From: an uncultured bacterium
GTDB lineage: Bacteria > Armatimonadota > Hebobacteria > Hebobacterales > Hebobacteraceae
Assembly: GCA_964385645.1 (NCBI GenBank)
Contig: CAYLPT010000003.1
Coordinates: 1 to 51,823, forward strand
Direction of reading: 5' to 3'
DNA: 51,823 bases
Shown here: piece after piece, positions 13,549 to 50,430 of the stretch
Layout: every line of letters begins with the position of its first letter
How positions within the stretch are numbered: the first letter of the stretch is position 1
Notes under the pieces: model-generated
What the model was told of the DNA's origin: nothing
Seen by the model: the letters and a program-made list of their open reading frames with translations, nothing else
Database searches by the model: none
Program-made: the position numbers and the translations under genes

Positions 13549-13564
13549 TGCAAGAGTCGTGCCA
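13549..13564 (-). promoter_or_regulatory. sigma-54 (-24/-12) promoter for the flippase-to-GT cassette
   Basis: TGGCACG-ACTC-TTGCA is an exact match to TGGCACG-N4-TTGC(A/T). It is intergenic and correctly oriented. Confidence 0.85.
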
Positions 13565-18455: not shown

Positions 18456-19724
18456 CTAGAAAATGTACCGGTACAGCCATAGGTACCGCCACGCGTTGTC
18501 GGTGATGGACTGGATGATGCTGGTTCGCGACCCGCCGCCCGTCTGCGGCGGCCTTTCCGGCACAAAGACTACGTCGCGGTGCTCCAGCACCGGGTTCTGG
18601 CTCATGTCACCATGCTGGAAGAGCCGCTTCAGATCAGCGGGGATGCGCACCGGCGGGTCGGATCGCACCACCGCGCACCCGTCGAGGATGGCGTTGTCCT
18701 TGAGTCCCCCGGCGGTGGTGATGAGTTCGAGCAGCGTCGTGCCCGCCGGCACCATGTACTGCCCAGGCTCCTTGACCCCGCCCAGGATGTTCACCTCGGT
18801 GCAGTTGCGCGGCACGATCAGCTCGTCGCCGGCCTGGAGGATCGCGTTCCGCTCGCTCCGGGGGTTGGCGTCGAGCGCGGTGAGGTCAACCACGGTCTCG
18901 GACCCATCGGCGCGCACCAGCCGGGCCGACCGGGGGTTCCCGTCATCCGTCCAGCGGCCCGCCTCCTCGATGGCGTCCGAGAGGCGGGTGTCGTCGTCAT
19001 CCTTCAGCCAGTAGCGCCCCGGCTTCTTCACCGCGCCGGAGACCTTGTACTCACCCCGATCGCGCGCCCGGGATACCGCCCTGGCGACCGACACGCGGTC
19101 CCCTGGCTCCAGGAGTGGGTTCTGGTCGGCCTCGCCTAGGCGCCGATAGTCGCGCAGATTGTAGCGGCGCTCGCTGCCGTCGGCCTTCGTGAGGTAGACG
19201 GCGGCGAGGTCTCGCTCCTCGTCCTGCACACCACCCGCCTGGTTGACGGCGTCCAGCAGCCGCGAGCCCGACGACATCTCGTACTCGCCCGGCCGGCGGA
19301 CGTCCCCGATGACCATGACTCGGAAACGGCTGATGGTCAGAATCACGGTCGGGTTCCTGACATACTCGCCGATCTGGCGAGAGAGGGTCTCGGTGGCCTC
19401 GGTGGCGGTCTTGCCTGCCACCTCCACCGCGCCGACCATGTCGTCGGAGAACAGGATGGTCCCGTCGGCCCGGACCGAGTGGGAGCCGGAGTACTCGGGC
19501 GCCCCGAGGACGCTGATCGAGAGGGTGTCCCCCCTCCGGATGCGGTAGGCTGCAGGTGCCGTGCCCTCGACGGCCGGGGCGGCCAGCGCCGCCTCCTCGG
19601 CCTCGGCGAGGGCTGCAGGTTCCTCCAGCTCCGGTTCGGCGGGCGCCTGGGCCGGGCAGAGCCCGAGCAGGACGAAGCAGGCGACGACGATGACGACCAG
19701 CGATCGCGCTTGGCTCGCTTTCAT
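18456..19724 (-). CDS. Wza-like polysaccharide export protein with SLBB repeats
   Basis: Signal peptide, 'YRIRRGDTLSISV...VRADGTI', and three SLBB repeats (G-x-V-x-x-PG-x-Y ... L-x-x-GD). Confidence 0.92.
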   Translation of the reverse strand: MKASQARSLVVIVVACFVLLGLCPAQAPAEPELEEPAALAEAEEAALAAPAVEGTAPAAYRIRRGDTLSISVLGAPEYSGSHSVRADGTILFSDDMVGAVEVAGKTATEATETLSRQIGEYVRNPTVILTISRFRVMVIGDVRRPGEYEMSSGSRLLDAVNQAGGVQDEERDLAAVYLTKADGSERRYNLRDYRRLGEADQNPLLEPGDRVSVARAVSRARDRGEYKVSGAVKKPGRYWLKDDDDTRLSDAIEEAGRWTDDGNPRSARLVRADGSETVVDLTALDANPRSERNAILQAGDELIVPRNCTEVNILGGVKEPGQYMVPAGTTLLELITTAGGLKDNAILDGCAVVRSDPPVRIPADLKRLFQHGDMSQNPVLEHRDVVFVPERPPQTGGGSRTSIIQSITDNAWRYLWLYRYIF

Positions 19725-19774
19725 CACGCTATCCACCGCGGTGGTATGGTCATGTCCTTCGCCAGCCCAGGGGA

Positions 19775-19790
19775 TGCACAGACCGTGCCA
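19775..19790 (-). promoter_or_regulatory. sigma-54 promoter for the wza-wzc-deacetylase-transferase operon
   Basis: TGGCACG-GTCT-GTGCA with GG-N10-GC spacing, about 50 bp upstream of the wza start. Confidence 0.8.
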
Positions 19791-19862
19791 CGCGCGGCGC
19801 ACGACGGCCCCGGCGGACGGCCGAGGGCCTGCTCTGACCTGGAAACAGATTGACACAGGGGC

Positions 19863-19891
19863 TTGACATGCAGAAGGTATGCCACTATACT
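19863..19891 (+). promoter_or_regulatory. sigma-70-type promoter for the enhancer-binding-protein gene
   Basis: TTGACA-17 nt-TATACT in an AT-richer divergent intergenic region. Confidence 0.8.
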
Positions 19892-20349
19892 GCCAGGCGT
19901 CGTCTCTGCAGGCGATTGCCGCGATATCCGCAGCCTCTTCCCAGCCCGAGCGACAGCAGATCGCAGCCGCGAAAGCCCCGTGCCCAGGCGTGCTGCGCTT
20001 CGTGCTGACTTGGGTCTTGTTCTCCGCTGAGCTCCAGCGCAGTCGGCTACACTAGCCATGCGTGGAGCTGTGGCCATGGCTTACCGGCGGCCACGGGGCG
20101 GGGGCTTGCTGGGAATCGGCGGGGAGACGATGTGGACGTTCGGAGGGCGGGCTGCGGCGCAAGGCGCCTCCGGTCCCTCGGTCTGCCGCGCGTCATCTCC
20201 GCCTGGCGGCGTCGCGCCCGACGTAGTCCGACCTGATTCTCTTCTCTCCTCCAGCGGGCCCGCGACGCCTCAGCCCGGCGCCATCCCCTCTCCAGCCACC
20301 GTAGCGCCCGCCCGGGCGGCCACCGGCTCCACGCGGAAGGTGGTGCGAG

Positions 20350-21786
20350 ATGCCGACGCGTGGCCGGATTCTGGTCGCTGACGAGGAGGCCCGCAACCAC
20401 CAGGCCCTCTGCGCCCTCCTCAAGCGAGACGGCTACCAGGTGGAGGTCGCCTCCGACGGGCTCCGGGCCCGCCAGGCGCTGGAGGCGGGGCAGGTGGATC
20501 TGCTCATCGCCAGCCTGCTGGTTCCCGAGTCGGACGGCTTCGAGCTGCTCCGCGCCGCCAAGCGCGTCCGCCCGGGGGTGCCTGTCATCCTGTTCTCGGG
20601 CTACGGGACCATCGAGACCGCCGTGCAGGCGCTGAAGCAGGGGGCCTACCACTACTTCCAGGAGCCCCTCGACATGGACCTGGTCCGCCAGGTCGTCTGC
20701 GAGGCGCTCCAGGGGCGCGAGCGGGCCCCCGCGGCCGCCGAGCCAGACCCTCCGGCGCAGAGGGATACCGCCGATGCGGCCAAGCTGGGGATCATCGGGC
20801 AGGGCCCGTGGCTCGGTCGGGTCCTGGAGCTGCTGGGGCGTGTGGCGCCGACGAGGGCGACGGTGCTGCTGACGGGCGAGAGCGGCACGGGCAAGGAGCT
20901 GTTCGCCCGGGCGGTCCACCGTATGAGCGGCAGGAAGGGGCCCTTTGTGGCGGTGTCGTGCGCCGCGCTGTCGCGGGAGCTGCTGGAGAGCGAGCTGTTC
21001 GGGCACGAGAAGGGGTCCTTCACAGGGGCGGATCGGCGCAAGCCGGGGCGCTTCGAGCTGGCGAACGGGGGCACGCTGCTGCTGGACGAGATCATTGACA
21101 TCCCTCTCGACCTGCAGGTCAAGCTCCTGCGCGTGCTCCAGCAGCACGAGTTCGAGCGCGTGGGTGGGACCGATACCCTGCAGGTAGATGTGCGGATCGT
21201 GGCCGCCTGCAACCGGGACATCGCGGAGGCGGTGCGCCAGCGCGTCTTCCGCGAGGACCTCTACTATCGCCTGAAGGTCGTGGAGATCACGCTGCCGCCC
21301 CTGCGGGAGCGGCAGGAGGACATCGCGCCGCTCGCGCACCACTTCGCGCAGGCCTACGCCAGGGCGAACGGCAGGAAGCCCCTGGGCGTGCCGGAGAGGG
21401 TGATCCGGCTCCTGGAGCGGCACCCCTGGCCGGGCAATGTCCGGGAACTCGAGAACGCCATCGAGCGGGCGGTGGTCCTGTCCCATCCTGAGGCGACGGA
21501 GCTGGATCCCTCGCTGCTCCCGGAGTCCATCTACGGGCGGCAGGCGCCCGTCGCGGCGAAGGTCACGGGCGGCTTGCACTCTGGGGCCGGCCGGCGGCGG
21601 CAGTCGAGCGTGCTGCAGGACATGGACGAGGCGGCGCGGGCGGCCTGCCTGCGGGAGGCGCTGGAGCGCTTCAGCGGCAACGCCGCGGCGGTGGCGCGGC
21701 GCCTGGGCGTATCCCCTCGCATGGTCCGCTACTACGCGGACAAGTACGGTCTGCCGCGGCGAGGCTACGGCGGCCGTGCCTGCTGA
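20350..21786 (+). CDS. sigma-54-dependent transcriptional activator (NtrC/Fis-family bEBP) with an atypical receiver domain
   Basis: Walker A 'GESGTGKE', 'ESELFGHEKGSFTGA', Walker B 'LLLDEI', 'FREDLYYRL', 'WPGNVRELEN' and a C-terminal HTH. Confidence 0.96.
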   Translation: MPTRGRILVADEEARNHQALCALLKRDGYQVEVASDGLRARQALEAGQVDLLIASLLVPESDGFELLRAAKRVRPGVPVILFSGYGTIETAVQALKQGAYHYFQEPLDMDLVRQVVCEALQGRERAPAAAEPDPPAQRDTADAAKLGIIGQGPWLGRVLELLGRVAPTRATVLLTGESGTGKELFARAVHRMSGRKGPFVAVSCAALSRELLESELFGHEKGSFTGADRRKPGRFELANGGTLLLDEIIDIPLDLQVKLLRVLQQHEFERVGGTDTLQVDVRIVAACNRDIAEAVRQRVFREDLYYRLKVVEITLPPLRERQEDIAPLAHHFAQAYARANGRKPLGVPERVIRLLERHPWPGNVRELENAIERAVVLSHPEATELDPSLLPESIYGRQAPVAAKVTGGLHSGAGRRRQSSVLQDMDEAARAACLREALERFSGNAAAVARRLGVSPRMVRYYADKYGLPRRGYGGRAC

Positions 21787-21802
21787 GGGCGTGAGCGGCG
21801 CT

Positions 21803-21818
21803 TGGCACGGTTATTGCT
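21803..21818 (+). promoter_or_regulatory. sigma-54 promoter upstream of the receiver-PilZ gene and rpoN
   Basis: TGGCACG-GTTA-TTGCT is a perfect consensus, 16 bp after the bEBP stop. Confidence 0.85.
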
Positions 21819-21874
21819 CGTCGGCGACCAGCCAGACAGCACTCCCTCAGAGAGGATGCGGGGGTCTCGTCACC

Positions 21875-22930
21875 GTGGCAAGCACCGAGGTCCCTGTCGC
21901 GCTGGCTGCGGACGCCGACCGGCAGTGCAATGAGAGTCTGTCCTCCTACCTGGAGGCGGCCGGGTGGAGGGTCCTGCGCGCGTACGAGGGCCGCTCGGCC
22001 CTCGCCATCCTCAGTTCCGAGCCGGTGTGCCTGGCGATCCTCGACCGCGACCTGCCCGAGGTGGATGCGGCCCGGGTCGTGTCGGCCGCACGGGCGAGCG
22101 GCCGGTGCTTCCAGGTCGTCTTCCTCGGGGACGCGCCTGGGCACGCCGAGGCCAAGGAGGGCGAGATGAGGGCCCTGGCGTGTCTTGCCAAGCCGCTGTG
22201 CACGGCATCCCTGGGCCCCGTGCTGCAGGAGGCCCTGCGCATGTCCGGTTCCGAGGATGGCGCCAGGAGCGGCGACTGCGCCTGGCCGGGTGAGTTGCAG
22301 GCAGGCGGGCGGGTGCGGCTGTCGGTGCGCACAGGGCCGGCGGCAGGGGGGTGTGCCGCCACCGTCGTCGAGGTGCGCCCCGAGGCGCTGGCCGTTCGCT
22401 GCGGCCCCGGGAGGGCCTCGCCGCGCTACATGCCGCTCGGCACCCTCGTAGTGGTCGGGTTCGGTTCGCCCCGCGGGTGGTGTGAGTGCGCCTCCCGCGT
22501 CGTCGCCTCACACGAGAACACGAGCGGCCTGGAGATGCTGCTCTCGGCCCCTGCGCGCATCGAGTATACCGAGCGGCGGCGGGGGACCCGCCGCGCGGCC
22601 TCCTTGGCCGTGGACGCGCGACCGCTGGGCCCAGCCGGGGAGGAGGGCGCGCCGGTCCCGGGCTGGACCGAGGAAATCGGGCCGGCGGGGTTGCGGGCGG
22701 TGCTCGACCGGCCGCTCAGGGGTGAGGGGGCGGTGGTGTTGTCGCTGTCCGGCCTGCGGGGCGGTGAGCGGGCCCTGGTGGCGGGGCGCACGGTCTGGTG
22801 GCAGGACTGCGGGCCCTCGGGCGACACCCGGCGCAGGTACGGATTCCGGTTCGTCCGCCTGCTGGGGGGTCGGTGGGGGAGCTTGGATGAGTTCGTCGCC
22901 GAGGCGACGGGAGAAAGCGAACAGCCCTGA
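21875..22930 (+). CDS. Receiver domain + YcgR-N-like + PilZ-like protein
   Basis: Receiver 'LAILDRDLP...CLAKP', a central beta-rich domain, then PilZ 'ERRRGTR...EEIGPAGLR...GRTVW...YGFRF'. GTG start chosen downstream of the sigma-54 promoter. Confidence 0.7.
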   Translation: MASTEVPVALAADADRQCNESLSSYLEAAGWRVLRAYEGRSALAILSSEPVCLAILDRDLPEVDAARVVSAARASGRCFQVVFLGDAPGHAEAKEGEMRALACLAKPLCTASLGPVLQEALRMSGSEDGARSGDCAWPGELQAGGRVRLSVRTGPAAGGCAATVVEVRPEALAVRCGPGRASPRYMPLGTLVVVGFGSPRGWCECASRVVASHENTSGLEMLLSAPARIEYTERRRGTRRAASLAVDARPLGPAGEEGAPVPGWTEEIGPAGLRAVLDRPLRGEGAVVLSLSGLRGGERALVAGRTVWWQDCGPSGDTRRRYGFRFVRLLGGRWGSLDEFVAEATGESEQP

Positions 22931-22938
22931 GGCGGCGC

Positions 22939-24357
22939 ATGCGAAGCGTCCAGCGAATCGAGCCCAGGACGACACAGACGCAGCGGGTCAGCCCGAGGCT
23001 GGTCGTCGCGGGAACGGTGCTGCAGATGTCGTCCGAGGAGCTCCGGCTCCGCCTCCAGGAGGAGGCACACGCCAACCCGGCGTTGGAGATCGTGTGGGAG
23101 AACCTCTGCCCGAGCTGCGGTCGCGGCCTGTCGGGGGACACCTGTTGGTTCTGCCGCAACGGCCAGCTGGAAAGTGGCGGTCCGCCGGCGATCTACGACG
23201 GGCCTCTGCCCGGCGAGCCGCGCGCCCGACGCTGGGACGGTGAGGAGAATGGCGACCCGCTCGAGCGGGTGCACAGCCCCTGCTCGCTCCAGGACCACGT
23301 GCTCCTCCAGGCCCGCCTCACGGTCGCGAACAGGGACCTGCCCATCGCCGAGTATCTGGTGGCGGGCCTGAGCGACGAGGGGCTGCTAGAGGTGGATGTG
23401 GAGGAGGCCGCGCAGGCCACCGGCGCAGACGCCGCCCGCGTCTGCGAGGTCCTCTCGGCGCTACAGGGGCTCGATCCACCCGGGGTCTGCGCGCGGTCGG
23501 TCCAGGAATCGGTGCTCATCCAGGTGCGACAACTCGCCGACGAGGAGCGGGTCCCTGAGCTGGCCGAGCCGATCCTGGCGCGCCACTGGCGGGACCTGGC
23601 GAACCACTCCTACGAGAAGATCGCCCGTCGGCTCGGCGTCTCCTGCGAGGCCGTCCAGGAGGCCGCGGAGTTCATCCGTACCAGGCTGTGCCCTTACCCG
23701 GGGCGGCTCTACCACTCGCCCTACGACGGGGCGGGGGGCGACCACGCGCCGGCGCTGCGCTTCGACCTGGCGATCAGGCGGGAGCTGGCGGACTACGTGG
23801 TGGAGGTGGTCCGGCCCTACGACTTCGAGCTGAGGGTGAGCGAGGCCTACCGCCGGCTGGGGGCGGTGGCGGGCAACGGACACGCCGGCGCCGCCGAGTA
23901 CCAGATGGCCCTGGATCAGTACCGCCGGGCCACCTGGCTGCTGCAGAGCATCAAGCTCCGGGAACAGACCCTCCGTGACATCGGCGAGTACCTGATCCGC
24001 GTCCAGCGGCCGTTCCTGGACACCGAGTCAGAGCAGAAGATGAAGCCGCTGACCCAGACCCGGGTGGCGAGCGAGACTGGCAAGCACCCCTCCACCGTCT
24101 CGCGGGCGATCTCGGGCAAGTTCGTCCTGCTGCCGAGCGGGCGGCTGATGGGCCTCGAGCGGTTCTTCTCCCCCGCGGTAGCACCCAAGACGGTGATCGC
24201 CGAGCTGCTCGCCAAGGAAAACCCCGAGAAGCCGCTGACCGACGAGCAGATCTGCCGCATCCTGCGAATCCGGGGGTTCAGCATCGCCCGGCGGACGGTG
24301 GCGAAGTACCGCCTCGCGCTCCGCCTGCCGAGCTCCATCCAGCGCGGGTACCACTAG
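22939..24357 (+). CDS. rpoN: RNA polymerase sigma-54 factor
   Basis: Region I 'QTQRVSPRL...LQMSSEEL...NPALE', 'LDPPGVCARS', HTH 'HPSTVSRA' and RpoN box 'ARRTVAKYR'. Confidence 0.96.
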   Translation: MRSVQRIEPRTTQTQRVSPRLVVAGTVLQMSSEELRLRLQEEAHANPALEIVWENLCPSCGRGLSGDTCWFCRNGQLESGGPPAIYDGPLPGEPRARRWDGEENGDPLERVHSPCSLQDHVLLQARLTVANRDLPIAEYLVAGLSDEGLLEVDVEEAAQATGADAARVCEVLSALQGLDPPGVCARSVQESVLIQVRQLADEERVPELAEPILARHWRDLANHSYEKIARRLGVSCEAVQEAAEFIRTRLCPYPGRLYHSPYDGAGGDHAPALRFDLAIRRELADYVVEVVRPYDFELRVSEAYRRLGAVAGNGHAGAAEYQMALDQYRRATWLLQSIKLREQTLRDIGEYLIRVQRPFLDTESEQKMKPLTQTRVASETGKHPSTVSRAISGKFVLLPSGRLMGLERFFSPAVAPKTVIAELLAKENPEKPLTDEQICRILRIRGFSIARRTVAKYRLALRLPSSIQRGYH

Positions 24358-24380
24358 CCGCGGGCACCCTGGCGGCGCCC

Positions 24381-26180
24381 TCACTCCACGTCCACGATCG
24401 CTGGCAGAGCCGGCAGCTCGACCTCGCCCTCTTCCAGCACCCCCTCGTGCGGCACCTCCGCGTCCGCCCGCAGGAGCAGAAAGTCGGCTGGCGGCAGAGT
24501 CGCGGCGAGGGTCCAGCCGGGCGGCGTCCAGGGCGGGCCGAGCGCCGGATCGCGGTCGCGGGCGCCGATCTGCTGCGCGATCACCGCCTGAAGGAGCTGC
24601 CACCGCCCCACCCCCTCCTCCGGCGGCCATCCAGAGAGCGGGGCCGACAGGAAGATCGCGTCCGGCACGACGCCCGCGCGCTCCAGCCGCTGGAGGCTCT
24701 CGCACCTCGTGGCGTCGGCCGCCTCGGCGATGCTGATCGGATTGTCCTCGTCCGGCTCCGGTGGCGAGGCCTGGGGTATCCAGATCGCGGTCCGGTTGGC
24801 GTACCACGCAACAGCCCAGGGCTGGTCCGTCAGTACGATCGCGTTCGCCGGCAGCGCTCGGCCCAGGTACTCCCAGTTCTGCCGGTCAGGCGGGGACGGC
24901 CTCCGGCCCGGCACGGCCAGCAGGGCTATCGGGAGCGCGGCGAGACACAACACCGCGGCAGTCCCCACGGCCGCAGGGCGGACGCCGATATGCCGCTCAC
25001 GCAGCACGAGGACAAACGCCGTCGCCCCGAGCGCGGCCGTGATGCCCGCGGTGCCGTAGAGCAGGTCGTACATCCCCTCGCCGGCGGCTAGGTTGAGCGA
25101 CACCAGCACCAGGCCGGCCAGAAACGCCCACTTCAGGCCGTTGCCCGCGCGGGAGCGCAGGTCGAGGACTAGCGCGAGACCGAATAGAGGCAGGAGGACC
25201 ATGCCGAGGAGCATCGGCAGGGTCGTCTCCAGGGCCACCAGATTGGTCAAGGTCTTCCTGGCCACCTCCCGGTAGTGTCCGAAGACGAACGTCAGCGCGG
25301 GGGTGTTGTCGAGGCTTGAGCTGACGTGCCGGTAGAGGCTGGACAGCGGATACGTGCCTGTGTTCATGGCAAGCTGGTAGCTGCGGAGGCCGGCGAACGG
25401 GCTGCCCGCGACGAGGAAGTTACGCACAAGCCACGGCGCGACGGCGGCGAAGGACCCGACGAGGAACAGGCCGACGTGCCGAAGCCGCTCAGAGCGCTGG
25501 AGGGCGTACACCAGCGCGGCGGCCGGGATCACGAACAGCAGGGCCGCGAAGTCGGTGAGATAGAGGACGCCGAACGCGACCCCGGAGAGCACGCTCCAGC
25601 GGCGGGCGCCCGGGTGGCGGACGATCAGGTAGAACAGCAGGGTCAGGAAGAAGGCCGTGGCCGCGACGTTGAGCCCGGTGTGGGTGGCCTTCAGGAGCCC
25701 CGGGTGGAGCCCGACGAGGAGCGCGGCGAGCGCGCCGGCCGGCGGGCCGAGCAGCCGCGAGGCGAGCAGGTACGTGAGTATGACGGTCAGCAGCGCCAGC
25801 GCGATCGAGAGAAGGATCATCGCGCGCTCGGTGGCGCCGAACAGGTTGAACCCGATCGCCAGCAGGAAGGGGTAGACGGGCGCGTTGTACAGGTCGGGAT
25901 GGCGCTCCACGCGGGGCGCCTTGGCGAGGCTGAACGGCCGCACGATGCTAGTCGTGAAGCCGTGGCCGTCGCTGATGTTGCGCCCAACCTGGGCCGCGTC
26001 CATCGCGTCCGGTATCCGGATGCCGGTGAAGTGGCTGCTGAAGAACCAGCCGTAGACGACCACACACGGAAGTAGCCAGGCGAGGTGGAAGAGCGCGGTT
26101 CGGACTCCCGCCTCGATTCGGTCGCGGCTGCGCGCGGCCGGGGCCGCCGGCTGTTGCACGACTCCTTCACTCGTGGCCAT
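24381..26180 (-). CDS. Glycosyltransferase family 39/83-like (PMT/ArnT, GT-C fold) membrane protein
   Basis: 'DAMDAAQVGRNISDGHGFTT', 'PVYPFLLA', 'PWLVRN' and many TM segments. Co-oriented directly downstream of the exosortase. Confidence 0.8.
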   Translation of the reverse strand: MATSEGVVQQPAAPAARSRDRIEAGVRTALFHLAWLLPCVVVYGWFFSSHFTGIRIPDAMDAAQVGRNISDGHGFTTSIVRPFSLAKAPRVERHPDLYNAPVYPFLLAIGFNLFGATERAMILLSIALALLTVILTYLLASRLLGPPAGALAALLVGLHPGLLKATHTGLNVAATAFFLTLLFYLIVRHPGARRWSVLSGVAFGVLYLTDFAALLFVIPAAALVYALQRSERLRHVGLFLVGSFAAVAPWLVRNFLVAGSPFAGLRSYQLAMNTGTYPLSSLYRHVSSSLDNTPALTFVFGHYREVARKTLTNLVALETTLPMLLGMVLLPLFGLALVLDLRSRAGNGLKWAFLAGLVLVSLNLAAGEGMYDLLYGTAGITAALGATAFVLVLRERHIGVRPAAVGTAAVLCLAALPIALLAVPGRRPSPPDRQNWEYLGRALPANAIVLTDQPWAVAWYANRTAIWIPQASPPEPDEDNPISIAEAADATRCESLQRLERAGVVPDAIFLSAPLSGWPPEEGVGRWQLLQAVIAQQIGARDRDPALGPPWTPPGWTLAATLPPADFLLLRADAEVPHEGVLEEGEVELPALPAIVDVE

Positions 26181-26222
26181 CACGTCCTCCTGAGTAGGGC
26201 CATGTGGCGCCGCCCTGGGCGC

Positions 26223-27812
26223 TCACAGCCCTGTAGCAGCATTCAAAGTCGGGTAAAGCTCCCGGAGGAGTTCCTCGGCCGCCTCTACCGCCGCCTCCGT
26301 CGAACCGGCCACCGGGGCCGTGACGCGGATCAGCGCGCCGCCGCTGGGGCGGTTCAGGAGCCGGTTGCGCAGCAGGCGGTACTGGAAGATGACCCAGCTC
26401 GGCGACGTCTCCTCGTGGGAGGCGAACCAGTAGAGCACGACCCGGCGGAAGTCCTGGCGCTGGAGCAGGAACTCGTTGGCGACCAAAGGCGCGCCCGCGC
26501 CCACGGACAGCTTGCGCCGGTTCTTCTCAAGGATGTTCCAGCCGCCGCCCAGCAGGCAGAAGCCGGGTGAGTGGAAGGTCTCCTTCTCCCGCCCGACGAC
26601 GATGGCAATGTCCGACCAGTAGCCGTCCTCGCGCACATACAGGCGAGCGACGTAGGCGTCGGGGCGGAGCATCTCCTGGCTCGTCCGATCCAGGGGCCCC
26701 AGGTCCTCGCCCTGCCACTGTTCTGTCTCCATGGGGAGGAGGGAGAAGTCGGAGCTGATGGGCTCGCCCGCCTCAGTGGCCGCATGGGAGCCGACGACCA
26801 GCAGGGCCGTGACGGCGAGCAGGGCCAGGGGCGGCAGGTAGGTCGGCCAGGGGCGCGCGCTCGGCTGGTGGGGCCGGGGCGGCGCGGTCGCATGAGCCGG
26901 GGCATCGCCGCCGGAGTCGCACGGCCCGCGGCCGGAGGGGTAGCGCAGGCCGAGCATCCGTGCGACGCCGGCGAGCCCCACGGCGGCGGTCACGTAGACG
27001 ACGGCGACGCCTGAGAAGCCATGCAGGAAGCCCTGCGCGGCATCCCGGCCCCACCAGGAGCCGATGGCGAGGATGCAGAGAATGCGGACGACGTTCGCGA
27101 TCAACGCTAGGGGAACGGTCAGGGCGAAGAGCGCCCCGCGCTTCCAGATAGGCCCCGTGAGGATGTACGCAGCCAGCGCCCCGACGGCGAGCAGGGCGAC
27201 GAGGGACTTCATGCCACTGCACGGCGCGCCCACCGAGAACGTGTAGCGAGGCAGGTGGATGTCCACGCCGTCACGCATCACCGGGACGCCAAAGAGGCCG
27301 GTGATCATGGCCGCGAACCTGGCGGAGAAGAGCTGCATCGGGAAGCTGAGGAACTCGACGAGGGTGTCCGGCCAGGGGATCGCGAACCAGAGGAACCCGT
27401 AGGCAAAGGCGAGGAGGCGGCTCGCCGCCGGCCCCAGCAAGTAGAGCATCAGACCGCCCAGGACGACCAGGAGCGACACCCGGGGCAGGAAGTGCACGTC
27501 GGAGAGGATGCCGAAAGGGTAGAGCAGGAGGCCCACGGCGATCACGACCAGCGCCCAGCCCCACCGCTGCGCCGCCGCGGCCGCGCCGCGGCGGCGCTCC
27601 CAGGCGAAGTAGCCAACCACGAAGGGCACGAGGAAGCCGTGGGAGGCGTTCTCGTTCGTCCACCACGTTCCCACCATGTCGGTCACCACCGGCCCGTACA
27701 GCGCGCACAGCGCGACGCACAGCAGCACCGGCGGCGCCGCGCGGCCGATGGGCGCGGCCCGCCGCGGTGCCGCCTGCGCCCCCTCCAGAGTCACTTCGCG
27801 CTCGGTCGCCAT
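26223..27812 (-). CDS. Exosortase (EpsH) fused to a C-terminal EpsI domain
   Basis: 'SHGFLVP' and the catalytic Cys/Arg/His motifs 'APCSGMKSL', 'NVVRI', 'FLHGFSG'. EpsI motifs 'HSPGFCLLGGGW', 'VLYWF', 'GALIRV'. Confidence 0.94.
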   Translation of the reverse strand: MATEREVTLEGAQAAPRRAAPIGRAAPPVLLCVALCALYGPVVTDMVGTWWTNENASHGFLVPFVVGYFAWERRRGAAAAAQRWGWALVVIAVGLLLYPFGILSDVHFLPRVSLLVVLGGLMLYLLGPAASRLLAFAYGFLWFAIPWPDTLVEFLSFPMQLFSARFAAMITGLFGVPVMRDGVDIHLPRYTFSVGAPCSGMKSLVALLAVGALAAYILTGPIWKRGALFALTVPLALIANVVRILCILAIGSWWGRDAAQGFLHGFSGVAVVYVTAAVGLAGVARMLGLRYPSGRGPCDSGGDAPAHATAPPRPHQPSARPWPTYLPPLALLAVTALLVVGSHAATEAGEPISSDFSLLPMETEQWQGEDLGPLDRTSQEMLRPDAYVARLYVREDGYWSDIAIVVGREKETFHSPGFCLLGGGWNILEKNRRKLSVGAGAPLVANEFLLQRQDFRRVVLYWFASHEETSPSWVIFQYRLLRNRLLNRPSGGALIRVTAPVAGSTEAAVEAAEELLRELYPTLNAATGL

Positions 27813-27830
27813 GGCGTGAAGTGACATCGG

Positions 27831-27846
27831 TGCAGGAACTGTGCCA
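27831..27846 (-). promoter_or_regulatory. sigma-54 promoter for exosortase-GT39
   Basis: TGGCACA-GTTC-CTGCA with GG-N10-GC spacing, immediately upstream of the ATG at 27812. Confidence 0.75.
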
Positions 27847-29899: not shown

Positions 29900-29915
29900 A
29901 GCACAGAACGTGCCA
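29900..29915 (-). promoter_or_regulatory. sigma-54 promoter for PEP-CTERM gene 2
   Basis: TGGCACG-TTCT-GTGCT. Confidence 0.8.
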
Positions 29916-30082: not shown

Positions 30083-30098
30083 GGGCACGCTTTGTGCA
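30083..30098 (+). promoter_or_regulatory. Distal sigma-54-like promoter for PEP-CTERM gene 3
   Basis: GGGCACG-CTTT-GTGCA with GG-N10-GC spacing. Confidence 0.5.
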
Positions 30099-30215: not shown

Positions 30216-30231
30216 CGGCACGGTGTGTGCA
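30216..30231 (+). promoter_or_regulatory. Proximal sigma-54 promoter for PEP-CTERM gene 3
   Basis: CGGCACG-GTGT-GTGCA, about 55 bp upstream of the ATG. Confidence 0.7.
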
Positions 30232-30285
30232 GGTTAGCGGCGAACGGCGTGGCGCCAGAGGGTGCCACAGCGAGGAGTGTACGAT

Positions 30286-33684: not shown

Positions 33685-33700
33685 GGCAAGAGTCGTGCCA
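33685..33700 (-). promoter_or_regulatory. sigma-54 promoter for the HEAT-repeat gene
   Basis: TGGCACG-ACTC-TTGCC, identical at 15 of 16 positions to the 13549-13564 site. Confidence 0.8.
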
Positions 33701-41993: not shown

Positions 41994-43946
41994 GTGTCCG
42001 GGGCCCAGGACGCAGACCGCTCGGTGAGAGAACATCGCCCGCAAGTCGTAACCTGGCGGTCGGTCGTCGTCGCGCTGGTCCTGATGCCGCTGCAGTCGTG
42101 GTGGGTGGTGCAGATGGAGGTGATCCAGCACGACACCTGGCCGAGCATGCTGGCCCTCCCGCTCCAGAGCCTCTTTCTGCTGCTTATCGTGACGGGAGCG
42201 AATGCGCTCGCGAAGCGCCGGCGGGCGCAGTGGGCCCTAATGCAGGGCGAGCTGCTGACCATCTACATCATGCTCGCCATCGGCGGCGTCATCGTCGGCT
42301 ACGGCATCCTTCAGCACGTGATCTCGTGGGCGATCGCGCCCATCGGGCGGGCTACCGCAGAGAACCAGTGGGAGGAGCTCTTCTCGCAACACCTCCGGAG
42401 CTGGCTGGTCCTGGTGGACCGGGCAAGCCTGGAGGCGCTGTACCAGGGAGAGACCAGCCTCTTCGCCAGTGACAACCTGCGCGCCTGGGCGCCGGTGATG
42501 CTGTCCTGGGGGGCCTTCTTCCTGGCCTTCTTCTCGGTTATGATGGCGCTTAGCACACTGCTGCGCCGGCGCTGGATCGAGGAAGAGCGCCTCACCTTTC
42601 CGCTGGTGCAGCTGCCGGTGGCGGTCACAGAGCCGCGGGGCGCGGTCTTCCGCAGTTGGCTGCTATGGATCGGTTTCGGGCTGGCGGCGGGGCTGGGGAT
42701 CCTTAACGGTCTGCACGCGCTGCTGCCCGCCATGCCCAGCTTCCAGTACGACTTCGGCGCGGCGAACCAGGCGCTGACCCTGCACGCAGCCTGCTTCGGC
42801 AAGCACGGAGGGACCTTTTGGCCGCCCCGCCCCTGGGCGATCGGGGTGGCGGGGCTGATGCCGCTCGACATCGCCTTCTCGTACTGGTTCTTCTTCTGGG
42901 CAGTGAAGCTGGGGGAGTGGGCGACTTTTCGGCTGGGCTGGACCGTGGCGCCGGACGCGCCCTTCGTCTACCAGCAGTCGGCGGCGGCCCTTCTGGCGGT
43001 GGGGGGATACACCCTGTGGTCGGCGCGCAGGCACCTGTGGAGGGTGGTAACAGGCGCTCTTCGACCAGGGCGCGAGTTGGGTGATCAGGAGGAGCCCCTC
43101 CCCTATCGGAAGACCCTGGCGCTGCTGGTGCTGTCCGTCGGCTTCCTCTGCGTGTTCCTCTGGCAGGCCGGTCTCCCGGGCTGGCTGGTGCCGGTCTTCC
43201 TTGCGCTGTATCTTAGCGCCAGCCTGGGCCTCACCCGGATCTCGGCGGAGCTGGGCGCGCCGGCGAACGAGATTCACGATGCGGAGCCCCACCGGATGCT
43301 CACCCAGCTGGCGACGCCGGCCTCCTTTCCGGCGGCCGCGCTAACCGCGCTGACCGTCCTGGGTTGGACCTCGCGCAGCTACGGCGTGGACCCCACTCCC
43401 CACCAGATGGGCGGCTTCAAGATGGCGGAGCGGACCGGGCTGCGCACGCGGGGCCTGGTGGGCGCGATGTTCCTGGCCGCGCTGGCGGGGCTGATCTTCG
43501 GCTACCTGGCGCTGCTGATCCCGCTGCACCGGCTGGGGGCGGACAGCGCGAAGCTCCACTTCAACGTCAGCGGGCAGTACGCGTTCGCCGAGCTTCACAC
43601 CTGGCTGATCGGCGTGGCGCCGGCGACCGGGCTCCGCGCCCTGGCGATGGGCTTCGGGTTCGTCTTCTCCGTCTTCCTCTATCTGATGCGGAGCCGCTTC
43701 CTCTGGTGGCCGTTTCATCCCATCGGCTATCTCCTGGCGCCGATGTGGTTCACACACCACCTATGGGTCTCAATCCTCATCGCTTGGGCGGCTAAGTTCC
43801 TCCTGCTGCGGTATGGCGGCATGAGGACCTACGCCGCGGCGCTGCCGTTCTTCTTCGGGCTGATCATCGGCGACTGCGTGATCGGCGGCATCTGGGCGCT
43901 GATCAGCTTGATCGCCCAGGTGCCGACCTACAGCGTGTGGATGTGA
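41994..43946 (+). CDS. DUF6785/DUF6784-like polytopic membrane protein (putative transporter)
   Basis: About 16 TM segments, 'ELLTIYIML', 'WIEEERLTFPLVQLP', 'WWPFHPIGY', 'LRYGG...PFFFGLIIG'. Confidence 0.82.
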   Translation: MSGAQDADRSVREHRPQVVTWRSVVVALVLMPLQSWWVVQMEVIQHDTWPSMLALPLQSLFLLLIVTGANALAKRRRAQWALMQGELLTIYIMLAIGGVIVGYGILQHVISWAIAPIGRATAENQWEELFSQHLRSWLVLVDRASLEALYQGETSLFASDNLRAWAPVMLSWGAFFLAFFSVMMALSTLLRRRWIEEERLTFPLVQLPVAVTEPRGAVFRSWLLWIGFGLAAGLGILNGLHALLPAMPSFQYDFGAANQALTLHAACFGKHGGTFWPPRPWAIGVAGLMPLDIAFSYWFFFWAVKLGEWATFRLGWTVAPDAPFVYQQSAAALLAVGGYTLWSARRHLWRVVTGALRPGRELGDQEEPLPYRKTLALLVLSVGFLCVFLWQAGLPGWLVPVFLALYLSASLGLTRISAELGAPANEIHDAEPHRMLTQLATPASFPAAALTALTVLGWTSRSYGVDPTPHQMGGFKMAERTGLRTRGLVGAMFLAALAGLIFGYLALLIPLHRLGADSAKLHFNVSGQYAFAELHTWLIGVAPATGLRALAMGFGFVFSVFLYLMRSRFLWWPFHPIGYLLAPMWFTHHLWVSILIAWAAKFLLLRYGGMRTYAAALPFFFGLIIGDCVIGGIWALISLIAQVPTYSVWM

Positions 43947-48441: not shown

Positions 48442-50430
48442 TTACTCCCAGGCGGCGAGGTGCATATGGAGGCCGATAAGGGGATCGAGGAGGCTGCGGA
48501 GGCCCATGATGACGAGGTGGGAGATGACCATGCCGAGGAAGGCCGGGCGGACGGTGCGGTAGAGTCGCAGCCCGCCGGCGCGGCGAATGATAGTGACGAG
48601 GAGCCAGGCGATGAAGGCGTTGGCCCACATCCGCTGGACCATTCCCCAGGTGCCGGCCATGATGAAGCCGAGGGGGCTGATGGCGAACCAGATGAAGCGC
48701 CCGTGAAGCCACATCAGCCCGGCCATGATGGCAGCGCCGAAGGCAAGCCCCGCGGGCAGGAAGGGGATGGCCGGCTGGGGCGAGCGAAGGTCGCTGGCGA
48801 GTTCTCCGAACTCCCAGGCCCCCATGTCGCGGAACAGCCAGGAGTCGAAGGTGAAGGCGCCCAGGGAGTAGGCGTAGCGCAGCGTGACCCAGGGGACGAT
48901 CGCCATGATGATCAGCAGGGAGGCCCAGAGGCAGGCGGTGGTGAGCCGGCCGGGGAGCCCGGCCGAGTGGGCGATCTTGAAGTTGTTGAGGGCGAAGTGG
49001 AGCAGGTTGAGCTTGTACTGGCGAGTGAAGGGTGACTGGAGCATGGAGAACATGGTAAGCGTGCGGGCTGGGTAGGCGGCGGCGCCGCGGAGAGCGACCA
49101 GGAAGGAGCGCGGGGTGACGCTCATGTCCGGGACGTAGACGCCGCCGGCGGAGACGAGGCGCGCCATGGTGAGGGAGTAGCCGAAGAACACGGCCAGCAG
49201 AGCGGCGAAGGCGAACGGATCGAGGCCGGCGGCGCGGCCCCACAGGGCCAGCGCGAGGCCGCTGGCGATAAGACCCAGCAGGGCGGCGGGAGGCGACATG
49301 GGAGCGAGTGGGTCGGGACGGGAACGCTGTCCGAGCAGGGCGCGCGCGGCGGTGGTGAGGTAGCCGCGGGAGCGCCACAGCAGGATCCCAGCCAGCATCA
49401 GGCAGGCGCCTACCTCCTGATAGGAGATGAAGGCGCCGGGGCTGAAGGCGCGGGCGGCGACGCCCCCGTGACCGTAGCCGAGGATCGAGAAGACGAGGAT
49501 CTCTAGGCGGTTGAGCAGGAAGAAGAACCAGAGACTGAGGGAAACCTCGACGGGAAGCAGGCCGAAGATGCCGATGGTGTCGAAGCCGATGTAGGCGGCG
49601 GTGTCGGAGAGCGTCTCCCAGGGACCGCGGCCAGTGAACCAGTGGCCCAGGGGGTAGTAGAGCCGGGAGTAAGGGACGGCCGGGGCGTAAGCGTGGGCCA
49701 TTTGCAGGAGGTTCTGCAGAAGGGGCAGGGAGGCGCCGACCCACAGGTAGGGACATCGCCACACGGGGCCGTGCAGGGTGGGGCGCTCCTGCGAGGCCAT
49801 CTCCAGGGGGATGGCGGCGAGGGGGAAGGCGAGCCGCTCCGACTCGATCCACTCCTTGCGCACGAGGGCGCCGAGGCAATACAGGAACAGGTAGACGCTA
49901 AGCGCGAGGCAGGACCACGCGAGCACTGGGCTGAGCCAGGGCCGCCAGGCCCAGCCCTGGCCGGGCGCGGCGCCGTGGAAGAAGCCGGTGACCAGTTCGG
50001 GGTCGGACACCGTGAGCCACACGGGCAGGTTGGGCAGGATGAGCTCCGCCCAGCGGTTGGCCGCAGAGGCGGCGTAGAAGGGGTAGACCGAGTGGTAGAG
50101 GGCATAGCCCCAAAGGCCCTCGTAGATGAGCCCCGCCGAGATGGCCATCATGGCATAGCCGAGGAGGAACTCCTGGCGGGTGAAGGCCCAGGAGGGGCGG
50201 ACCCGGTGCAGGAGGGTGTTGAGGGGCCAGATGAGCAGGAAGAGGACGAAGACCGGGCCGGTGGAGAGGGGACGGAAGGCCCAGTCGTACTTACGGAGGG
50301 CGAGGTTCACCCACGGCATGACGAAGGCCAGGCCGATGACGAGGGCCAGGCCGAGAACGATGCCGCGCGGTCGGATGCGGCCGAGGGGGTCTGCACTAGG
50401 GGCAGACGCTGCTGGGTCAGCGGTCGCCAC
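48442..50430 (-). CDS. DUF6785/DUF6784-like polytopic membrane protein (paralog)
   Basis: 'EFLLGYAMM', 'WIESERLAFPLAAIP', 'WFAISPLGF', 'RAGGLRLY...PAFLG'. Confidence 0.82.
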   Translation of the reverse strand: MATADPAASAPSADPLGRIRPRGIVLGLALVIGLAFVMPWVNLALRKYDWAFRPLSTGPVFVLFLLIWPLNTLLHRVRPSWAFTRQEFLLGYAMMAISAGLIYEGLWGYALYHSVYPFYAASAANRWAELILPNLPVWLTVSDPELVTGFFHGAAPGQGWAWRPWLSPVLAWSCLALSVYLFLYCLGALVRKEWIESERLAFPLAAIPLEMASQERPTLHGPVWRCPYLWVGASLPLLQNLLQMAHAYAPAVPYSRLYYPLGHWFTGRGPWETLSDTAAYIGFDTIGIFGLLPVEVSLSLWFFFLLNRLEILVFSILGYGHGGVAARAFSPGAFISYQEVGACLMLAGILLWRSRGYLTTAARALLGQRSRPDPLAPMSPPAALLGLIASGLALALWGRAAGLDPFAFAALLAVFFGYSLTMARLVSAGGVYVPDMSVTPRSFLVALRGAAAYPARTLTMFSMLQSPFTRQYKLNLLHFALNNFKIAHSAGLPGRLTTACLWASLLIIMAIVPWVTLRYAYSLGAFTFDSWLFRDMGAWEFGELASDLRSPQPAIPFLPAGLAFGAAIMAGLMWLHGRFIWFAISPLGFIMAGTWGMVQRMWANAFIAWLLVTIIRRAGGLRLYRTVRPAFLGMVISHLVIMGLRSLLDPLIGLHMHLAAWE

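Follow-up and report, generated by a model that had tools for sequence, protein, structure and literature searches.

A predicted autoactivated sigma-54 operon within an exosortase/exopolysaccharide locus of an uncultured Armatimonadota bacterium

Introduction

The first 51,823 nt of contig CAYLPT010000003.1, from an uncultured bacterium of the phylum Armatimonadota, carry what is probably an autoactivated sigma-54 operon within a sigma-54-controlled exosortase/exopolysaccharide (EPS) locus, a reading to which we give a probability of roughly 0.65. This whole stretch of DNA, 71% G+C, is referred to here as the window. The core of the arrangement is a cassette in which the gene for an NtrC-type bacterial enhancer-binding protein (bEBP) is followed by a predicted sigma-54 promoter, a gene of the REC-PilZ family and rpoN, the gene for sigma-54. 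Transcription by sigma-54 requires a bEBP, and the factor itself is generally regarded as a housekeeping component made constitutively, with its activity set by activators. The DNA of the cassette and of its relatives gives good support to a predicted wiring with positive feedback on sigma-54, and it is plausible that transcription of the bEBP gene reads through into the two genes that follow it. From the arrangement we also infer co-transcription, activation by this particular bEBP, read-through as the basal source of sigma-54 and any switch-like behaviour; bistability from such a loop is possible in principle.

Comparisons were made with the genome to which the window belongs (G000; assembly of 2.76 Mb, 83% complete), with a sample of 31 genomes of its class and with a sample of 301 genomes of the Armatimonadota. 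The rarity of promoter motifs was judged against 100 shuffles of the sequence, and a consensus scan for sigma-70-like and terminator-like sites covered positions 19500-24600.

A predicted sigma-54 promoter between the activator gene and rpoN

The sigma-54 promoter consensus consists of GG and GC doublets 10 nt apart within TGGCAC-N5-TTGCW. A match to it, TGGCACGGTTATTGCT, is present on the forward strand at 21803-21818, with the GG at 21804-21805 and the GC at 21816-21817. This element is non-coding and lies on the same strand as the genes around it, starting 16 bp past the stop codon of the bEBP gene (TGA, 21784-21786) and 57 bp ahead of the GTG start codon of the REC-PilZ gene at 21875, in an intergenic gap of 88 bp. 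The initial annotation had described a perfect sigma-54 promoter 16 bp after the bEBP stop, with a transcript start near 21829. The full consensus is indeed found there, and the same start (~21829) is predicted by counting 12 nt from the -12 C at 21817. The motif TGGCAC-N5-TTGC occurs three times in the window against 0.14 expected, a count reached in none of the 100 shuffles, and the 2.76-Mb genome has four exact sites, three of them within these 52 kb. Downstream of the promoter, the 8-bp gap reported between the REC-PilZ gene and rpoN was confirmed (stop at 22930, rpoN from 22939), and the scan found no terminator-like site in 19500-24600.

Within the class sample, rpoN was found in five of the 31 genomes (G000, G007, G015, G018 and G020), compared with 213 of 301 in the phylum sample. 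The order bEBP gene, PilZ-type gene, rpoN is kept in all five, which span three families, and TGGCAC-N5-TTGC is present in the bEBP/PilZ-gene gap of every cassette, 43-121 bp ahead of the proposed start of the PilZ gene. Moreover, the motif is the sole block that aligns across the five gaps. The distance from the PilZ gene to rpoN is 8 bp in both G000 and G007, 25 bp in G018 and 30 bp in G020; the gene of G015 contains masked bases, and its gap lies outside the measured set. G007 shares a wider synteny with the window, which extends over the exosortase, PMT_2, cassette and exporter genes.

Each of the four relatives has a single rpoN match. Matches to PF00158 above 200 bits number one each in G007, G015 and G018, all of them in the cassette, and G020 has one match above 200 bits together with one of 78.7 bits. 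With the sole rpoN and the sole strong bEBP of these relatives placed in the cassette, the rpoN promoter would be read only by the product of that rpoN together with the adjacent activator, and the feedback reading draws its strongest support from this. The claim that activation amplifies sigma-54 itself is thus upheld in part: the promoter in five of five cassettes and the sole rpoN of four relatives speak for it, but G000 encodes a second sigma-54, and its loop need not be purely self-acting. Two further genomes of the same family, G001 and G011, each assembled as a single contig (81% and 65% complete, respectively), gave no rpoN match, and no strong bEBP match was found in G001. The presence of rpoN in five of the 31 genomes of the class marks sigma-54 as a trait that can be accessory.

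Beyond the class, roughly 500 bp upstream of 30 other Armatimonadota rpoN loci were scanned, and TGGCA-N6-TTGC was found on the same strand, about 100-300 bp upstream of the gene, in four of them (L136, L140 and L145 of family f7, and L135 of family f11). The f7 loci have the full TGGCAC-N5-TTGC, with genes for a kinase and a bEBP after rpoN; at L135 a bEBP gene comes immediately after rpoN. Self-driven rpoN may therefore be recurrent in the Armatimonadota. A wider survey of rpoN alignments, covering at least 80 loci with best-segment identities of 26-36%, returned generic rpoN patterns and was uninformative on the cassette.

The genes of the cassette

The activator gene (20350-21786, forward strand) encodes, according to Pfam matches and its translation, an NtrC-type enhancer-binding protein with a REC domain, an AAA+ sigma-54 interaction domain (Sigma54_activat, PF00158, 224 bits), an AAA lid and an HTH_8 domain (24 bits). 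A GAFTGA-type loop is the hallmark motif of the AAA+ sigma-54 interaction domain of bEBPs, and the loop in this translation reads GSFTGA. The protein scores 350.7 bits against the PrsR model TIGR02915, under its cut-off of 502.6, and 359.6 against the NifA equivalog model, under its cut-off of 528.85. No kinase gene adjoins the bEBP gene within the window, and a search of G000 for the cognate kinase gave only catalytic-core matches to the kinases of the relatives, at 26-40% identity and on other contigs.

The middle gene (21875-22930, forward strand) had been read as a receiver-PilZ gene following the promoter, an assignment that stands for its family but is less secure for the protein itself, which falls under both Pfam cut-offs (REC, 24.2 bits against 30.2; PilZ, PF07238, 19.9 bits against 22.5, a match obtained only with the C-terminal part scanned alone). 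A profile built from four orthologues retrieved seven related clusters from a large protein collection, six of which have precomputed Pfam REC, PilZNR and PilZ domains, and because its homologues carry these domains the gene is placed in the REC-PilZ family, with a REC + PilZN + PilZ architecture. The organism of one homologue is labelled as Armatimonadota in the source collection. Among the aligned family members, PilZ was matched in three of four (E up to 0.01) and REC also in three of four; the G007 orthologue has no receiver domain. The motifs RxxxR and D/NxSxxG are those through which PilZ domains are associated with cyclic di-GMP (c-di-GMP). RxxxR is retained in all four aligned members, appearing as RRRGTRR in the window, and the second motif has the degenerate form EIGPAG in the window's copy and reads DIAQRG, DVGEGG and DACEGG in the relatives.

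The rpoN gene (22939-24357, forward strand; 472 aa) encodes all three sigma-54 Pfam domains (PF00309, 37 bits; PF04963, 119 bits; PF04552, 116 bits) and scores 271.0 against TIGR02395, just below the cut-off of 277.35. The protein also has a CxxC-x8-CxxC insert directly after region I (23107-23154; residues 57-72). Outside the window, the genes compared were those of loci L001, L023-L025 and L117-L146; an insert of the form CxxC-x8-10-CxxC is invariant in the five rpoN genes of the class and was seen in 22 of 30 further ones sampled from the Armatimonadota. The sequence resembles a zinc-ribbon-type insertion into region II of sigma-54, and we know of no description of it.

In addition to the cassette, another bEBP gene and rpoN form a pair in G000, 15 bp apart on contig C202 (L116, 1-2401; L001, 1-1959). 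The pair lacks a PilZ gene, a -24/-12 motif is absent from the whole 10.8-kb contig, and the bEBP gene is truncated by the contig end. The C-terminal DNA-binding motifs of the two sigma factors of G000 are near-identical (ARRTVAKYR and ARRTVTKYR). In a tree of 35 rpoN proteins, from which G015 was left out and in which the 30 other rows are the best-scoring loci of the phylum sample, the five of the class, among them that of C202, group in a single clade (support 100/100).

The divergent control region

Between the bEBP gene and the divergently oriented polysaccharide export gene lies a non-coding control region of 625 bp (19725-20349), which lacks a codon-position GC signal, matches no Rfam family and has an ordinary fold. 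Two sigma-54 promoters are predicted in it for the export operon. The proximal one, TGGCACGGTCTGTGCA, is at 19775-19790 on the reverse strand, about 50 bp before the start of the export gene at 19724, and is conserved in G007. The distal site, TGGCATACCTTCTGCA, at 19869-19884 on the same strand, matches the relaxed -24/-12 pattern and lies 94 bp upstream of TGGCACGGTCTGTGCA; G007 has two such sites in the same place, 101 bp apart, and TGGCATACCTTCTGCA aligns roughly with the distal of these.

On the opposite strand the distal site is enclosed by a sigma-70-like promoter, TTGACA-17-TATACT, at 19863-19891. The initial annotation had reported a near-perfect sigma-70 promoter facing the bEBP gene, and this is borne out: the sequence is the single exact match in the window, none of the 100 shuffles yielded any, and the consensus scan of 19500-24600 found it as the only sigma-70-like site (shuffle mean 0.2). 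It lies 459 bp from the bEBP ATG at 20350 and ~3 kb from rpoN. Of its 17 spacer bases, 16 are the reverse complement of TGGCATACCTTCTGCA, so that the predicted sigma-70-like promoter of the activator overlaps the distal sigma-54 site back to back, in G000 only. As the site concealed in the spacer is itself a conserved sigma-54-type site, an added negative arm is suggested, in which sigma-54 holoenzyme bound at 19869-19884 could hinder the sigma-70 holoenzyme.

The leader of the bEBP gene (19898-20349) has a fold z-score of -1.07, which is not unusual, and an Rfam search of the whole window, this leader included, returned no family. A 107-aa open reading frame at 20058 was considered as a gene and rejected, since no codon-position GC signal backs it.

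The surrounding exosortase/EPS locus

The three cassette genes sit within an exosortase/EPS locus. Divergent from the bEBP gene are genes for a Wza-like exporter, a Wzc-like co-polymerase/kinase, a DUF3473 deacetylase and a priming sugar transferase, and also for a flippase, a pyruvyl transferase, Wzy and glycosyltransferases; the Wza-like polysaccharide export protein, identified by profile matches, is encoded by the first gene of this divergent operon (18456-19724, reverse strand). Convergent on rpoN are genes for a PMT_2 glycosyltransferase (24381-26183) and an exosortase-EpsI fusion (26223-27813), and three PEP-CTERM proteins are encoded further along the window.

The relaxed -24/-12 pattern matches six times in the window against 0.44 expected, with none of the 100 shuffles reaching six, and an additional exact match at 33686-33700 brings the sigma-54-type sites to seven. 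Each lies ahead of, and on the same strand as, an EPS, exosortase, PEP-CTERM or HEAT-repeat gene. Besides the site at 21803 and the two in the divergent region, they comprise four on the reverse strand: a predicted promoter with both the exact and the relaxed motif at 13549-13564, before the flippase, pyruvyl-transferase and glycosyltransferase genes; relaxed matches at 27831-27846, before the exosortase-EpsI and PMT_2 genes, and at 29900-29915, before a PEP-CTERM gene running from ~29720 down to 29043; and the exact match, before a gene for a HEAT-repeat protein.

Two weaker -24/-12-like sites on the forward strand, at 30083-30098 (GGGCACG...GTGCA) and 30216-30231 (CGGCACG...GTGCA), precede a PEP-CTERM gene at 30262 and are outside the count of seven. 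Further along, two paralogous large DUF6785/DUF6784 proteins (41994-43946, forward strand; 48442-50430, reverse strand) are encoded on either side of Kelch-repeat and FAD-oxidoreductase genes.

Proposed circuit and alternative explanations

In the proposed circuit, a low level of bEBP-PilZ-rpoN transcript would arise from upstream, its source in G000 probably being the sigma-70-like promoter at 19863 or else an unrecognised promoter. Read-through would carry this transcript across the 88-bp gap between the bEBP and PilZ genes, where no terminator-like site intervenes, and the sigma-54 so produced would, as holoenzyme, occupy the 21803 promoter as a closed complex. The bEBP, once switched on, presumably by phosphorylation of its receiver, would open this promoter and raise transcription of the REC-PilZ gene and of rpoN, 8 bp downstream of it. 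The extra sigma-54 could then serve the six other -24/-12 sites, at the export operon, the flippase operon, the exosortase gene, the PEP-CTERM gene and the HEAT-repeat gene. The co-induced REC-PilZ protein would probably feed c-di-GMP or its phosphorylation state into the loop.

Several observations weigh against autoactivation as described here. The five cassettes are related to each other and are not five independent observations. Genome-wide in G000, the exact motif is weakly enriched, with four sites against two in a reversed control. No shared activator-binding motif emerged upstream of four, and then eight, sigma-54-type sites when k-mers and palindromes were compared with shuffles, and an enhancer for the 21803 promoter would have to sit within the bEBP coding region. 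The basal route is also unsure, as the sigma-70 match is not conserved: it has no counterpart in G007, the closest relative, and a histidine kinase gene lies directly upstream of the bEBP gene in G015, G018 and G020. The sigma-70 promoter as the start of the wiring, as first proposed, is therefore retained as a match in the sequence, but its distance from the bEBP ATG and its absence from G007 tell against that role. Lastly, the second sigma-54 on C202 could read the promoter, so that autoregulation is not forced in G000.

The last point leads to an alternative in which the sigma-54 of C202 is the resident factor and, with one of the two bEBPs, turns on the window's rpoN in a cascade. G000 does have two rpoN and two strong bEBP genes with near-identical DNA-binding motifs in the sigma factors, and the C202 pair has a 15-bp gap and a motif-free contig; in rhizobia, RpoN1 can start expression of prxS-rpoN2 (PMC3538637). 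However, four relatives with the same promoter have one rpoN, so a second sigma-54 is not needed by the promoter, and the position of the C202 rpoN within the cassette clade accords more with a duplicate specific to this lineage than with a housekeeping gene. We regard the cascade as unlikely. It is very unlikely, in our judgement, that the promoter acts chiefly as a brake, with unactivated sigma-54 holoenzyme at 21803 blocking read-through from the bEBP gene and thereby giving negative autoregulation of rpoN as in R. leguminosarum. Negative autoregulation of rpoN does have precedent (PMC3538637), the scan found no further promoter in the stretch from the bEBP gene to rpoN in which the site is located, and the sigma-70 match facing the bEBP gene is overlapped by another site of sigma-54 type. 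Nevertheless, a full consensus oriented with the downstream genes, 43-121 bp from the PilZ-gene start in all five cassettes, has the geometry of an active promoter, the activator gene is always adjacent, and braking and activation can coexist.

The 21803 promoter might also serve mainly the REC-PilZ gene, with most rpoN transcripts starting at a constitutive promoter within that gene that has escaped recognition, and feedback reduced to a minor effect. A weak promoter directly before rpoN is described for R. capsulatus and R. etli (PMC6925177, PMC3538637), and a consensus scan would miss weak promoters at a G+C content of 71%. Even so, no sigma-70-like site was found at the scan threshold in 21875-22938, and RNA started at 21803 should in any case continue into rpoN, across a gap of just 8 bp with no terminator-like site in the way; we hold the probability of this account to be equally small. 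Autoactivation of the rpoN operon remains our preferred reading. A more ambitious form of it, which we regard as doubtful though conceivable, would make the locus a self-contained sigma-54 regulon, with its own sigma factor, a sole activator and a REC-PilZ modulator that senses c-di-GMP or phosphorylation and gates the loop, the whole being kept or lost together with the exosortase/EPS locus. In that form, a positive loop on rpoN would be combined with a negative arm, in which sigma-54 holoenzyme bound as a closed complex at 19869-19884 would fill the spacer of the activator's sigma-70 promoter, giving all-or-none or pulse-like commitment to matrix production.

Significance and comparison with known systems

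In the four relatives, the sole sigma-54 and the sole activator are encoded inside the locus that they are predicted to control, and the sigma gene stands behind its own type of promoter. If autoactivation holds, the cassette would represent a minimal, single-purpose sigma-54 system outside the Proteobacteria and a compact natural example of an enhancer-dependent sigma factor bootstrapping itself. It would also link c-di-GMP, via PilZ, to sigma-54 abundance in the control of the extracellular matrix. In the literature on sigma-54 and exosortases of the Armatimonadota, and on PilZ-rpoN autoregulation, no description of this arrangement was found in a search that was not exhaustive.

The initial annotation had held that rpoN is usually constitutive or negatively autoregulated; negative autoregulation is indeed known, but the statement is incomplete, as positive autoactivation has been published for R. 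capsulatus, R. etli and M. loti. In the R. capsulatus nifU2-rpoN superoperon, a weak constitutive promoter precedes rpoN and a promoter activated by NifA and RpoN precedes nifU2 (PMC6925177, citing Cullen et al. 1994). As outlined in that account, the likeness to the window lies in a sigma-54 gene placed behind another gene with a sigma-54- and activator-dependent promoter (predicted in the window), a separate weak, sigma-54-independent basal source, for which the window offers a candidate, and a sigma factor for one dedicated regulon. The R. capsulatus unit differs in its NifA activator, its nifU2 partner, its role in nitrogen fixation and its host in the Pseudomonadota, compared with an NtrC-type activator, a REC-PilZ partner and an exosortase/EPS locus here; moreover, its activator gene lies outside the unit, and its basal promoter has been mapped, whereas that of the window is predicted. 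The prxS-rpoN2 operon of R. etli and M. loti is NifA/RpoN-dependent, with a model in which basal sigma-54 and the activator amplify RpoN2 (PMC3538637). There too, in the sections that deal with this operon, a -24/-12 promoter stands ahead of a two-gene operon ending in rpoN, but those genomes retain a housekeeping rpoN1, whereas four of the five cassette genomes have no other rpoN.

The Xanthomonas fleQ-vemR-rpoN2 operon unites the genes for a bEBP, a receiver and sigma-54, and VemR binds RpoN2 (PMC6637908), which offers a possible model for the REC-PilZ protein. The passages of that report describing the operon mention no internal sigma-54 promoter, and the system further differs in its flagellar regulon, in the lack of a PilZ domain from VemR and in the presence of a second gene, rpoN1 (PMC6637908). 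A parallel in function is the PrsK/PrsR/PrsT system, in which sigma-54 sites precede PEP-CTERM and EPS genes and an NtrC-type regulator is encoded in the exosortase locus (Haft et al. 2006, PMC1569441). Both features recur in the window. In the parts of that paper devoted to it, the Prs system appears without rpoN and without a PilZ gene, and on the side of the window the bEBP falls under the PrsR cut-off and has no kinase gene beside it. The principle of an autoactivated rpoN operon is thus already known from R. capsulatus and rhizobia; what is new is its occurrence in this phylum, the pairing with a REC-PilZ gene, the position of the activator gene directly before the promoter and the placement in an exosortase locus, together with the fact that in four of the five genomes there is no other sigma-54 or strong bEBP.

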